Position numbers and translations under genes: made by a program
Source of the DNA: a virus
IMG/VR virus record: IMGVR_UViG_3300042691_015921
Direction: 5' to 3' (one strand)
DNA: 64,000 nt
Notes under the pieces: model-generated
Seen by the model: the letters and a program-made list of their open reading frames with translations, nothing else
What the model was told of the DNA's origin: nothing
The model's database searches: none
Shown: positions 18,385 through 31,114 of the stretch, in pieces
Numbering within the stretch: the first letter of the stretch is position 1
Layout: every line of letters starts with the position of its first letter

Positions 18385-18482
18385 TGGTATGCCGTTTGCT
18401 ATATGCAAATCCCGTGCCGGAAATTAATTCTCGTTTGGCACGATTTTTGCGAGCGGCCCAAAGCGGCCGCTCCGCTGCGGCC
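18385..18482 (+). repeat. sigma54-site/hairpin module, copy 1
   Basis: -24/-12 sites at 18385(+), 18405(-) and 18436(+); hairpin GAGCGGCC-CAAAGC-GGCCGCTC at 18451-18472. Confidence 0.85.
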
Positions 18483-18556
18483 ACTTAATGGGGTTGTATT
18501 AGAGTGCTACCCATTTTGCAACTGTCGGCGGGCTGGGTAGCCCCACCATAATTATG

Positions 18557-18823
18557 TCAGTATGTAGGGAGTTCAGCAATAATCTGCTTGGCAAAAAGAT
18601 GGTTTGGCTGTCCCAAAACGTCTGCTTCTTCAAGATCATCACCCTTGTAACATCCAATATTCATACTGTACGGAAGAATAACATCAAGCGATCCATTGTA
18701 GTCTAAGGCAGCATTGCTAGGACGCAACTGAATCACCAGTTGTTTACCGCCAGGAAAATTGATGATGAAATCGCAATCATGATCTGGTGCTTCTTGATGA
18801 ATCTCAGTGAACTTATAGTTCAT
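18557..18823 (-). CDS. hypothetical protein
   Basis: ORF with an AAGGA RBS. Confidence 0.55.
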   Translation of the reverse strand: MNYKFTEIHQEAPDHDCDFIINFPGGKQLVIQLRPSNAALDYNGSLDVILPYSMNIGCYKGDDLEEADVLGQPNHLFAKQIIAELPTY

Positions 18824-18857
18824 TTCTATTTCCTTAGATTAGAGGTAAAGCTGCCAA

Positions 18858-18930
18858 TGCCCCCACTAGGACTTGAACCTAGAACCTATCGGTTAAAAGC
18901 CGAATGCTCTGCCAATTGAGCTATAAGGGC
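18858..18930 (-). tRNA. tRNA-Lys(TTT)
   Basis: Cloverleaf GCCCTTA...; anticodon loop CTTTTAA; T-loop TTCAAGT. Confidence 0.93.
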
Positions 18931-18938
18931 AACTATTG

Positions 18939-19322
18939 TTAGTTTCTTTCCTCAAGAATGTAGACTTGCCGGTCTTGAGTTACCAGGGTGGCATATTCAT
19001 ATCCGTCCCAGATGAACTCCCCGTCATCACTATCCCGCCTCCAGTGAGGATCGACAATAGGATTATAGAACAAACGCTCCAGATTGTCAACCGGAATATT
19101 TTCAGTCACGATCAATTCCGCACACTCAATCCATCCCGCCACATCCTTAACGCCTTCGGCGTGGACCTTCTTAGCCTTGTTCACCTTGTTAACCAGCTTG
19201 CACTCAAGCATTTCTAGGGAATACTGCTTGGGGTCAAGATACCTAACAGCACTATCCGGCCCACGAACTTGCCACTTCTTGAAGTTCTCACCGCTTTGAA
19301 GATGGAAGCGAACCTTATACAT
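18939..19322 (-). CDS. conserved phage hypothetical protein
   Basis: MYKVRFHLQSGENFKKWQV; GGAGA RBS; promoter TTGACA-N16-TAGAAT at 19342-19369. Confidence 0.7.
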   Translation of the reverse strand: MYKVRFHLQSGENFKKWQVRGPDSAVRYLDPKQYSLEMLECKLVNKVNKAKKVHAEGVKDVAGWIECAELIVTENIPVDNLERLFYNPIVDPHWRRDSDDGEFIWDGYEYATLVTQDRQVYILEERN

Positions 19323-19370
19323 TTCTATCTCCTTTTCCACCATTCTACCATACTTTTAGTGTATGTCAAG

Positions 19371-19442
19371 TGACCCCACGGGGAATCGAACCCCGGTTAA
19401 CGGATTGAAAGTCCGCTTTCCTAGCCGCTAGAAGATGGGGCC
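19371..19442 (-). tRNA. tRNA-Glu(TTC)
   Basis: Acceptor GGCCCCA/TGGGGTC; anticodon loop CTTTCAA; T-loop TTCGATT. Confidence 0.93.
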
Positions 19443-19447
19443 AACTA

Positions 19448-19648
19448 TCACTGTGGCTCCGCAAGAATTGGTGCTTCGCTGTCGTAATCCATATAGTAAA
19501 TAATCGCGTCTTCGATGAGAGGAATCAGACGCTCTCGCATCTTTTTCAATTCATCATTAGAAAGACTAGGGTAGTCCAGAGCCTCTACCCATGACTGAAA
19601 GAACGCATAGTCAATCAGGATCGAAGAAGTTTGTGCAAAATTACTCAT
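19448..19648 (-). CDS. hypothetical protein
   Basis: ORF with start MSNFAQ. Confidence 0.5.
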   Translation of the reverse strand: MSNFAQTSSILIDYAFFQSWVEALDYPSLSNDELKKMRERLIPLIEDAIIYYMDYDSEAPILAEPQ

Positions 19649-19808
19649 CGTTGATTGCCTTTCGATTAGCGGAACCACGGGTTCGTTGACGCTTGGGACG
19701 GCTGTCGTGCAATCCACTCCCCGACCTGTGGGGGCTGTGACCCTTGCCCAATTCCCACACCGGGCGGATATTGAGTTGGATTGGTTCGTATTTGCGGGAC
19801 TTGCTCAT
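19641..19808 (-). CDS. small basic protein
   Basis: MSKSRKY...GSGLHDSRPKRQRTR; overlaps the upstream gene by 143 nt. Confidence 0.5.
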   Translation of the reverse strand: MSKSRKYEPIQLNIRPVWELGKGHSPHRSGSGLHDSRPKRQRTRGSANRKAINDE

Positions 19809-28743: not shown

Positions 28744-28826
28744 GATTGAACCCTTCGGGTGAGAGTGTACCAGATTTTCCAGCCCCGGCAAGGGGAGGGG
28801 CGGTTTCCCGCCCCTCCCCGTTTGGG

Positions 28827-29342
28827 TCAGCCGATGATGTACTCCGAACCTTTCATCCGAATCGACCGGATGTTCTCCACCGCGAAATCCCGGAGCATGA
28901 TAGCCTTTTCCGTTCCCTGCCGACCACTGTGGCGGGCGGGCGGAAGCCACTTCGCCACTTCCTCCGGGTCCACGGGGGAAAGGTCGGGCATGATGTAGGC
29001 GATAACGTCGCTCCGCTCCACCTTCGCTTCGATGTACCACTTATCCTTATGGTAGACGAGAGGCGTGCCCGCGATCCGCTCCCCCCACTTCCGGGGTTCC
29101 GCGATGAAATCGGCCACCATCCCCTCACGCTCCCGCTGCCGGTTGACGGCAGACTCATAATTGAAATTGAGAACCCCGTTGACCTTGCGGACAAGCCGCA
29201 GACCGGGGTACGGGTTGCCAGCCCGCAAACGCGGTTCCGTGGATGCCACGAAGGAAACCATCGTCGCACCTTTCACGGAGTGAAGCATGGCGATAAGATC
29301 GGACGCAGAGATACCGATACGATTCGCAATCGTCGCAGACAT
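28827..29342 (-). CDS. conserved phage hypothetical protein
   Basis: T.P.L...NPY...NFNYE.AVN.Q..REG...F....RKWG; promoter at 29391-29418. Confidence 0.7.
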   Translation of the reverse strand: MSATIANRIGISASDLIAMLHSVKGATMVSFVASTEPRLRAGNPYPGLRLVRKVNGVLNFNYESAVNRQREREGMVADFIAEPRKWGERIAGTPLVYHKDKWYIEAKVERSDVIAYIMPDLSPVDPEEVAKWLPPARHSGRQGTEKAIMLRDFAVENIRSIRMKGSEYIIG

Positions 29343-29433
29343 TGTGAAATCCTCTTGAGTGTCGCGGGTTTTCCTCCCCGCGATGGTGTCATTCTACCAT
29401 CTATCATCGGCGTGTCAACACCCCGACTTGAAG

Positions 29434-29679
29434 CTTACGGGATTGTAAGGTTCTCCCTTTGGCACAGCATTTGCTAGCAGCGGTATTACTATTCCTTTAC
29501 TATCGTGTTACTATTCTTTTACTATCTGTTACTGTCATTTTGGCAGGATAGTAAACGTGTGCAAGTCCCGTGCCATTTGCCCTGCCATTTTGACACTGCC
29601 ATTTTGACAGCACTGCAACTCCCGTGCCAAACCGACTGCCATTTTGACAGCCGCCCAAAGCGGCGGCTGCGTTGCGGCC
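29434..29679. repeat. sigma54-site/hairpin module, copy 6, with phased TTACTAT repeats
   Basis: Sites at 29460(+), 29561(-) and 29615(-); four palindromes; hairpin CAGCCGCC-CAAAGC-GGCGGCTG at 29648-29669. Confidence 0.8.
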
Positions 29680-29805
29680 ATAAGCGTGGTTTTCGCGGGT
29701 TGTGATCGCTCTAAAAGCCATAATCTCCCCTATTCCCTACTAGAAGTCCCGTCGCGTCCATCCGGGTCAGGGGGGCGGTTTCCCGCCCCCCATGCCCCGT
29801 GCGGA

Positions 29806-29976
29806 CTACTTCTTCCCGTCCTCCAGGGTGCGGAGAACCTTGTCCCTCTTGATCTGGTATTTCAGATCCTTGAGGACATACAAAACCATTCCCGCCTCAT
29901 GGGAGGTCAGTTGGCGGCGAGAGTTCGCCACCTCCGTCAGCAGACGGATCGCATCATCCACGGTCAGGGAGTCCAT
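29806..29976 (-). CDS. hypothetical protein
   Basis: Start MDSLTV; leader AAGGTTCAATCATG resembles the one at 28743. Confidence 0.55.
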   Translation of the reverse strand: MDSLTVDDAIRLLTEVANSRRQLTSHEAGMVLYVLKDLKYQIKRDKVLRTLEDGKK

Positions 29977-30058
29977 GATTGAACCTTTCGCGTGAAACGT
30001 GAAACCCTTTTCCCCGTCCGGGGAGGGGGGAAACGCTCCCCCCTCCCCATTGTGCGGG

Positions 30059-30337
30059 TCAAGCCCGCACGAACCTACCATTACTCGCCCGCATCATCTT
30101 CCGAACTACGGGGTAGACTTGCTTGCCACCCTCGCAAACCTTGACGATATTACGGAGGGTGAATGTACGATACGGCCCACGAATGTCGTCAGCCGGAATG
30201 CCGTCAATCTTGAACAACTGATAGGGTCCGTTCTTGCCCTGATGCACCGGGCCAATCCAGTGGCCCGAATAGGTGGTGACGATGCCATTCTTTACGTACC
30301 ACACCTGCGTTTTGACATTTTCCACGATTGCGGACAC
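30059..30337 (-). CDS. small beta-rich (SH3/WYL-like) protein
   Basis: Y...G.....G......GKNGPY...YRTF.L.NI; GTG start. Confidence 0.55.
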   Translation of the reverse strand: MSAIVENVKTQVWYVKNGIVTTYSGHWIGPVHQGKNGPYQLFKIDGIPADDIRGPYRTFTLRNIVKVCEGGKQVYPVVRKMMRASNGRFVRA

Positions 30338-30438
30338 TGTAAAACCCTTTCGTATTGGGAAAACTCCCCACCTTCCCACCCCCTAACGCTAGGGGAGGGG
30401 AGGGTAGGGAGGGGGCTTTCGCCCCCTCCCGATCCCCG

Positions 30439-30786
30439 TCACCCGTAGAACGGGCTTTCCCGATCCTCTTCGGCCTTTTCCATCTGGGCCGAATAGGCCA
30501 CGACCAGTGCTTCCAGCCGTTCCTCCGATCCGGGCTTCCCAACGGGAACGATCATGCCATCGTCCCAACCCTTGAACCGCTTGCTGACCTTGACCTTGAC
30601 CTTCCGGGCCTTGGGAACCCGGCGGGTCACTTCCGTCCGAAGGTAGGGACCGTCGTCCGTCCAGACCATGCCCAGCGTAGTCTCCACGAACGGAATCCCT
30701 GCCGCCGCCGCTGCCGCAAACAATTCTTCGGGCTTGTGAACCTTGACCAATTCCGTGCCGGTGACGATGGAAAAGATGGCAGACAT
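30439..30786 (-). CDS. hypothetical protein, first gene of the leftward arm
   Basis: ORF with an AAGGGG RBS; GKPGSEER motif. Confidence 0.6.
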   Translation of the reverse strand: MSAIFSIVTGTELVKVHKPEELFAAAAAAGIPFVETTLGMVWTDDGPYLRTEVTRRVPKARKVKVKVSKRFKGWDDGMIVPVGKPGSEERLEALVVAYSAQMEKAEEDRESPFYG

Positions 30787-31114
30787 TGTAGAACCCCTTG
30801 AAGTAGGAAACCGATCCGAGGGACGCCCCCCGTGCCGAATAGCATATGCACTCCCCGTGCCGAAACAAAAAAAATCCTAAGTCTAATCGTGGTAAGGGTT
30901 TACGATTTATGCCATTATGGCAGATTTCACAAAAACAGTGAGACGTTCACAAAAATTGTGAATCGCCTCCCAAAAATTGTGAATCGCTCACCGATACGGG
31001 GAACGTGCATGGCGGGGGGTTTTCCGTTCAATCGGCAGGAGTCTGGCGAGATCGTCGCGGGCCGGGGGGGTTTTTCCGCAATATCCCTCTAGCTTAGTTA
31101 ATGTATTGCCTCTA

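Follow-up and report, generated by a model that had tools for sequence, protein, structure and literature searches.

A conserved sigma-54-type motif at fixed positions in the early-gene boundary modules of an uncultured aquatic phage and its relatives

Phage transcription programs are known to use the host sigma-70, phage sigma factors and phage polymerases, and our literature search returned no description of sigma-54 use, or of arrays of sigma-54 sites, in phage genomes. The closest described systems are the PeSLs (promoter early stem-loops) of T4-type phages, in which a stem-loop and a strong early sigma-70 promoter are repeated between small, variable early genes (PMC2839356, PMC4122927), and the bacterial sigma-54 promoters, such as glnAp2, pspA and the E. 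coli set (PMC4591121), in which a GG and a GC doublet lie one helical turn apart in the form TGGCAY-N5-TTGC, behind a T-rich 5' flank. In this work we analyzed a stretch of 64,000 nucleotides of the IMG/VR virus record IMGVR_UViG_3300042691_015921 (hereafter, the window), which belongs to an uncultured aquatic phage and has no DNA match among 50,697 GenBank phages. Features of both systems are found together between its early genes, where six intergenic regions, which we call hubs A to F (at 18.4, 21.8, 24.2, 26.0, 28.3 and 29.5 kb, respectively), carry 14 sites of the sigma-54 type, or boxes, next to a hairpin and to sigma-70-type promoters.

Based on the pattern YGGYAYR-N4-TTGC, and using dinucleotide-preserving shuffles of the window as a control, we found 16 matches, compared with a mean of 0.32 in the shuffles (maximum 3), which represents an excess of about 50-fold. 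The 14 intergenic matches lie in six gaps between minus-strand early genes, from 18.4 to 29.6 kb, and they are the same ones that had been pointed out by a previous inspection of the DNA letters without database searches (the sequence-only reading), with every position and strand recovered. The dense packing that it described is borne out by the shuffled controls, its two face-to-face pairs are real, and the near match that it mentioned is present, with GTGC replacing TTGC. Its remark that the structural arm is free of such sites is almost but not quite right, because one match (46992+) lies there, inside the open reading frame (ORF) 46867-47265. This match and the other one outside the early arm, at 10939+ in rIIA, are both in coding sequence and are probably due to chance.

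The spacing between both halves of the motif is fixed. When the gap in TGGCAY-Nk-TTGC was varied from 1 to 10, the window gave 12 occurrences at k=5 and 0-1 at each other value, and 0.9 Mb of related contigs gave 58 at k=5 against 0-5 at the others. From 81 distinct sites of the window and its relatives we obtained a logo that reads ttTGGCAYR-N3-tTTGC with an unconstrained spacer and that includes the extended consensus, namely, a pyrimidine or T before TGG, a purine after TGGCAC, a T before TTGC, and A or T after GC. All 14 early-arm sites have the GG and GC doublets at the 10-bp offset characteristic of sigma-54 promoters; the base after the GC is A or T in nine of them, and in the remaining five it is the G with which the adjacent hairpin begins. 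This logo agrees with the sigma-54 consensus obtained from chromatin immunoprecipitation sequencing motifs in E. coli (PMC4591121). The sigma-54-type identity proposed by the sequence-only reading is, therefore, well supported by the exact -24/-12 geometry, the extended consensus, the enrichment and the conservation in relatives and, judged by its sequence, the motif is a sigma-54 box in every diagnostic respect.

The boxes are part of a module whose order, followed along the genes, is a GC hairpin (H1), one to three boxes, an A/T-rich tract, one or two strong early sigma-70 promoters (TTGACA or TTGCAA, about 16 nt, and TAGAAT with a TG extension) and the next gene. The box proximal to the promoter is 29-30 bp from the -35 hexamer in hubs A to D, and the hubs constitute repeated 79-nt families within the window genome. 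H1 has an 8-bp stem and is present in the window as five copies and one variant. In five hubs, a backward box directly abuts H1, which spans positions -11 to +11 of the predicted sigma-54 start; in hub A, for example, H1 begins at the base following the -12 GC of box 18436, and it is therefore centered on the predicted start site. Over nine copies from the window and the related loci L004 and L101, H1 is 98.6% paired, with compensatory changes at two stem positions. More generally, 14 of 84 distinct sites have a perfect palindrome, 6 bp or longer, centered 10-13 nt past the -12 C, compared with 1 of 84 on the mirrored upstream side, and these palindromes belong to three unrelated sequences, so that what is constant is the center and not mere adjacency. 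H1 lacks a U-tract on either strand, being flanked by the box on one side and by a GC-rich tail on the other, and terminator-like sites are not enriched in the region from 16 to 32 kb (18 against 16.4 expected); we therefore discarded H1 as an intrinsic terminator. The same region contains 47 sigma-70-type promoters against 16.4 expected, nearly all on the minus strand. A second palindrome, TGCCA-N3-TGGCA, occurs 14 times against 1.9 expected, and is found in hubs C to F; it could act as an enhancer site, but in many cases it abuts or follows a box.

Ten of the 14 boxes are aimed against the genes and four point with them, since the genes of this arm are on the minus strand, as indicated by the tRNAs, the GC skew and the sigma-70 promoters. 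As a whole, the boxes do not have the co-orientation, shortly upstream of a driven gene, that is expected of ordinary promoters; it is seen in the four forward sites of the window, in the near match at 30847 and in sites of the related genome G008. The near match has no sigma-70 promoter between it and the first early ORF, and its predicted start is preceded, at about 80 bp, by an A-tract and a palindrome. When orientation was counted relative to the sigma-70 promoters with a looser pattern, which in the window adds a weak match at 18336+ inside a hub A promoter, outside the 14 sites listed, backward and forward boxes numbered 11 and 4 in the window, 9 and 2 in the related genome G006, 5 and 0 in G010, and 3 and 9 in G008. 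The mostly forward boxes of this last genome rule out a universal backward orientation.

The boxes are also found in relatives of this phage. Locus L004, whose terminase is 88% identical, has the same triple of inverted, forward and inverted boxes, joined to an H1 that differs in its loop, after which come TTACTAT repeats with an 11-bp period; L101 combines box, H1 and sigma-70 promoter in three hubs; and in L069 and L073 (terminase 61% identical) two boxes stand back to back, with an unrelated hairpin after them. Wider relatives were gathered by searches with the DUF932 and GP88-like early genes, which gave 109 loci from numerous large aquatic phage contigs. The motif is present in 31 of these loci, in some of them directly upstream of the orthologous gene and in either orientation, and face-to-face pairs are present in six. 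Among the complete genomes with terminal repeats, G006 (138 kb) has 8 sites clustered within 5.7 kb, G008 (161 kb) has 10 within 3.7 kb, and G010 (148 kb) has 5 within 12.7 kb, while the reversed-pattern control gave 0-1; the clusters of G006 and G008 are located, as in the window, in a GC-richer early arm beside a sigma-factor gene. The inverted-forward-inverted triple is common to the window, L004 and G006 despite proteins that are only 30-75% identical. A forward box is found 35 nt ahead of an ATG, with no sigma-70 promoter between them, in G008 and L218, and in G008 one such box stands alone; tandem boxes also precede sigma-70 promoters in G008. Other relatives have, at this hub position, TGCCA-N3-TGGCA palindromes, CGTAAGTCC-type repeats, or only a TGCCAAA half, and the gene content between hubs varies while the hub elements recur. 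Because the clusters, the triple and the face-to-face pairs recur in relatives, the boxes are conserved cis elements and, on this comparative evidence, they are selected and positionally fixed parts of the boundary module. The motif is thus a conserved, positionally fixed component of the early region in a widespread uncultured clade that includes three complete genomes.

Since the motif is selected, positionally fixed and, in every diagnostic respect, a sigma-54 box, we favor the sigma-54 polymerase of the host as its reader, to which we give, taking all its functional variants together, slightly better than an even chance. Two other candidate readers were discarded. The sigma-70-family factor encoded by the phage is an unlikely reader, given that the 5-bp gap is unfit for a promoter of that family and that a distinct TGGAGTATAATA-like motif, a candidate late promoter for this factor, heads structural genes at 39.4, 41.6 and 49.6 kb. 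Sites of the IHF or CRP type were ruled out by eye, because their spacing or half-site order is wrong.

The specific reading that we prefer, tentatively and at somewhat less than even chance, is that the boxes are docking sites for the host sigma-54 RNA polymerase with a cis role in the cassette-boundary module. The holoenzyme would read the boxes, transcripts would start at them, and those transcripts would themselves play a role. The forward boxes at 18405, 26042, 29561 and 29615, together with the near match at 30847, would give the early genes an additional, enhancer-dependent entry. The ten backward boxes would direct transcription against the end of the cassette before them, or just retain polymerase there, and the resulting convergent or antisense transcription would reduce read-through and tune early expression to the state of a host activator. 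The soaking-up of RpoN would then be a side effect of having many strong sites on a replicating genome. The fixed register, the kept arrangements, the start-site palindrome and the lone box in G008 are indications of a role in cis, of which titration could be a by-product. A broader version, which we regard as quite unlikely, is that a large clade of uncultured aquatic phages uses sigma-54 polymerase in a parked, activator-gated form and not as an ordinary promoter reader: with the -12 element abutting a hairpin or cruciform based at the -12/-11 fork junction, the enzyme would be locked at the cassette boundaries as an insulator or antisense gate, and RpoN would be drained from the stress and defense regulons of the host during replication.

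Several observations weigh against docking sites with a cis role. Face-to-face boxes, only 4-6 bp apart, cannot hold two holoenzymes at once by their geometry, and at five sites the -11 to +11 region, which would have to melt, is occupied by a GC-rich hairpin and should resist opening. There is no universal orientation rule, as backward boxes prevail in the window, G006 and G010, and forward boxes in G008, and the relative G001 (terminase 84% identical) keeps the hairpin-plus-promoter hubs and has no boxes. Most of the E. coli sites for sigma-54 are transcriptionally silent (PMC4591121). The weightiest points are the host, whose possession of rpoN is only presumed, and the missing activator gene. 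As for the activator, the RpoN-box protein or enhancer-binding protein that the sequence-only reading proposed to look for in the phage did not appear: a domain search of the 71 minus-strand ORFs of the window returned neither Sigma54_activat nor Sigma54_DBD, and the ten related records gave no sigma-54 or activator domain apart from one weak AAA+ match in G006.

Some of these observations are better accommodated if another protein, a phage early protein or a host factor, reads the motif and activates or represses the adjacent sigma-70 promoters, the box being an operator that resembles a -24/-12 element. Orthologous hubs exchange one type of box for another at the same position upstream of the -35 hexamer, a behavior typical of phage-specific operators; a small dimerizing protein would fit head-to-head pairs with a 4-6 bp gap better than two holoenzymes would; the palindromes have the same TGGCA core as the -24 half; and the variable orientation and the lack of boxes in G001 are in line with it. 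However, all the diagnostic features of sigma-54, including the spacing and the unconstrained spacer, would have to be matched by a coincidence that is improbable across divergent phages, and the early ORFs common to the box-bearing phages have no recognizable DNA-binding domain; we consider this alternative unlikely, if a serious one. It is very doubtful, in our judgment, that the boxes are a pure sink, as in the decoy array of the sequence-only reading. The array would titrate the scarce sigma-54 holoenzyme as the genome replicates, which would shut down the sigma-54 programs of the host with no need of transcription. The many near-consensus sites, the mutually exclusive pairs, the lack of an encoded activator in the window minus-strand ORFs and the related records, and the binding of sigma-54 to promoters in an inactive state (PMC4591121) would fit a sink, and GC hairpins at the melting region would favor locked closed complexes. 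Nevertheless, a sink leaves unexplained why the boxes keep a fixed register to the sigma-70 promoters, why the triple is conserved and why a palindrome is centered on the start site, and it does not account for the G008 sites at ordinary promoter positions or for relatives that manage with 0-5 sites.

Closed complexes, or another binder, could alternatively act as a roadblock or insulator that, together with the hairpin, ends one cassette before the next promoter. The boxes are indeed placed between both elements, tandem triplets would strengthen a block, and the early arm shows no excess of canonical intrinsic terminators, yet each cassette has its own promoter. A simple model of this kind is weakened by E. 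coli, where intragenic binding of sigma-54 left transcription unblocked (PMC4591121), and by G001, where the hairpins are present without boxes, and we find it very unlikely. The least probable of the explanations, to which we give little credence, is that the boxes are passengers of a boundary repeat that is mobile or recombines, a nature also proposed for PeSLs, and that they persist through descent and gene conversion instead of through a binding function. It would account for the repeated 79-nt families within one genome and for hub elements that recur among relatives of differing inter-hub gene content. However, the GG, the GC and the distance between them are fixed in repeats that have diverged in spacer and flanks, and the motif recurs in phages whose hub sequences are otherwise unalignable. 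If sigma-54 polymerase is the reader, as we favor, these phages would couple or oppose their early program to an enhancer-dependent, signal-gated pathway of the host, or would disarm that pathway. The hubs are short and can be synthesized, which makes the question directly testable.

Table 1. Coordinates in the window of the boundary hubs and of other features mentioned in the text (box, sigma-54-type site; H1, GC hairpin; palindrome, TGCCA-N3-TGGCA unless otherwise noted).
Feature	Position	Strand	Description
Hub A boxes	18385-18399, 18405-18419, 18436-18450	+, -, +	Inverted, forward, inverted in gene orientation; first two face each other, 5 bp apart (18400-18404)
Hub A H1	18451-18472	+	8-bp GC stem, 6-nt loop; begins at the base next to the -12 GC of box 18436
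Hub A promoters	18247-18352	-	Two in tandem, sigma-70-type, TTGCAA, 16 nt, TAGAAT, TG extension; the -35 hexamer lies 30 bp downstream of the end of the proximal box
DUF932 gene	17306-18208		Driven by the hub A promoters
Hub B	21801-21837	+	Single inverted box 21801-21815 joined to H1 21816-21837
Hub B sigma-70 promoter	21768-21741	-	30 bp off; drives the denV-like gene
Hub C	24191-24252	+	Inverted box 24191-24205; H1 24206-24227; palindrome 24240-24252
Hub C sigma-70 promoters	24158-24131, 24079-24052	-	
Hub D boxes	26023-26037, 26042-26056, 26073-26087	+, -, +	First two face to face, 4 bp apart (26038-26041)
Hub D H1 and palindrome	26088-26109, 26121-26133		Compensatory change in the H1 stem; the hub spans 26023-26133
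Hub E	28312-28438	+	Three palindrome-plus-inverted-box units in tandem (palindromes 28312, 28346, 28388; boxes 28327, 28366, 28402), then H1 28417-28438
Hub F boxes	29460-29474, 29561-29575, 29615-29629	+, -, -	Inverted, forward, forward; the hub spans 29460-29669
Hub F palindromes	29533, 29583, 29597, 29637		Interleaved with the two forward boxes
Hub F H1 variant	29648-29669		Two compensatory changes
Hub F sigma-70 promoter	29418-29391	-	
Near-match forward box	30862-30847	-	About 50 nt before ATG 30786 of the first early ORF
Palindrome upstream of the near match	30910-30922		
TTACTAT repeats	29486-29534		4-5 direct repeats, 11-bp period, in hub F between box and palindrome
TCACAA-W3-TTGTGA dyads	30927-30987		Three, 20-21 bp spaced
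G-run/C-run hairpins	27221-27258, 28500-28537, 29764-29801, 30020-30048, 30402-30439		GGGGAGGGGG...CCCCC family, downstream of early ORFs
CCGATA-like blocks	18325-18352, 21741-21768, 24052-24158, 29391-29418		In the spacer of early sigma-70 promoters
GC-rich early region	16000-32000		
UDP-galactopyranose mutase and nucleotide-sugar epimerase	12506-13597 and 33707-34771	- and +	
HNH gene	31115-31657		
Phage sigma factor	31771-32265	+	First gene of the plus-strand arm
Terminase large subunit	36337-39426	+	1029 aa
TGGAGTATAATA-like motif	39427-39491, 41592-41636, 49559-49600		In plus-arm gaps before structural genes

The window is divided into two arms. The region from 1 to 31.7 kb was assigned as a minus-strand arm because of its three minus-strand tRNAs, negative GC skew and abutting ORFs starting with ATG, and its ORFs include rIIA/rIIB, a DUF932 protein, a denV-like glycosylase and a GP88-like protein. 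The plus-strand arm starts at 31.77 kb with a small sigma factor of the sigma-70 family, followed by the terminase and the structural genes. The G+C content is 46-55% between 16 and 32 kb and about 35% in the rest of the window; an early arm with a G+C content 10-20 points above the rest is also observed in G006 (20-35 kb) and G008 (1-10 kb and 155-161 kb). The tblastn search with the putative capsid protein gave no match in the GenBank phages and the terminase is at most 31% identical to those of cultured phages, so that, also considering that the DNA matches none of the GenBank phages, the window does not qualify as a T4-type phage. The large subunit of its terminase aligns with those of relatives over only about 1980 nt, yet these alignments span residues 12-1029, which suggests an intein-like insertion of about 370 aa in the copy of the window. 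Two nucleotide-sugar enzymes are encoded (Table 1), and the relative G001 has, in addition, a GDP-mannose dehydratase and glycosyltransferases; a sugar modification of the DNA or of the host surface is possible.

Other repeated elements were observed in the early arm. The TTACTAT repeats of hub F, which are also found after the hairpin of L004 (846-875), look iteron-like and may mark an origin or a response-regulator site. Three dyads in an operator-like layout are located at the head of the early arm, between the divergent arms, and a family of G-run/C-run hairpins follows several early ORFs. A CCGATA-like block occupies a fixed place in the spacer of the early sigma-70 promoters, also in the hubs of G001, and hints at an extra recognition element.

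The clues about the host did not lead to an assignment. The metagenome-assembled genome bins containing relatives of the portal-like protein are inconsistent, being assigned to Bacteriovoracaceae, SAR202 and Saprospiraceae; no psbA or WhiB was found in five relatives, and the Glf look-alikes are uninformative in this respect. The best matches of rIIA in cultured phages are from roseophages, with 28-29% identity, and in two of these phages, MD18 and DSS3P8, the motif is no more frequent than expected by chance. A two-piece transfer-messenger RNA at about 31.1-31.7 kb was considered and not used to infer the host, as an Rfam search of 30900-31850 at E values up to 1 gave no match, including the surroundings of the HNH gene.

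Compared with the known systems, the hubs resemble PeSLs in the repetition of a stem-loop followed by a strong early sigma-70 promoter between small early genes, a layout that the hubs of G001 share, and in an inter-module gene content that varies among relatives. They differ in belonging to a phage that is not T4-type by the proteins examined, in a stem-loop without a U-tract, and in the presence of sigma-54-type boxes and extra palindromes, neither of which, to our knowledge, is carried by published PeSLs. With bacterial sigma-54 promoters, the boxes share the doublet spacing, the TGGCAY-N5-TTGC form and the T-rich 5' flank and, for a few sites, a normal promoter position with an upstream palindrome and A-tract; unlike them, they are phage-borne, mostly oriented against the genes, arranged in head-to-head pairs and tandem triplets, and combined with a start-centered palindrome, with no activator gene found. 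The E. coli datA locus, which binds DnaA, and the iteron arrays of plasmids and P1 cluster, on one replicon, numerous high-affinity sites for a single scarce protein. Unlike such titration loci, the boxes described here are embedded in promoters at a fixed register, and this fixed cis geometry, as read from the sequence, argues against a decoy array without a cis role.

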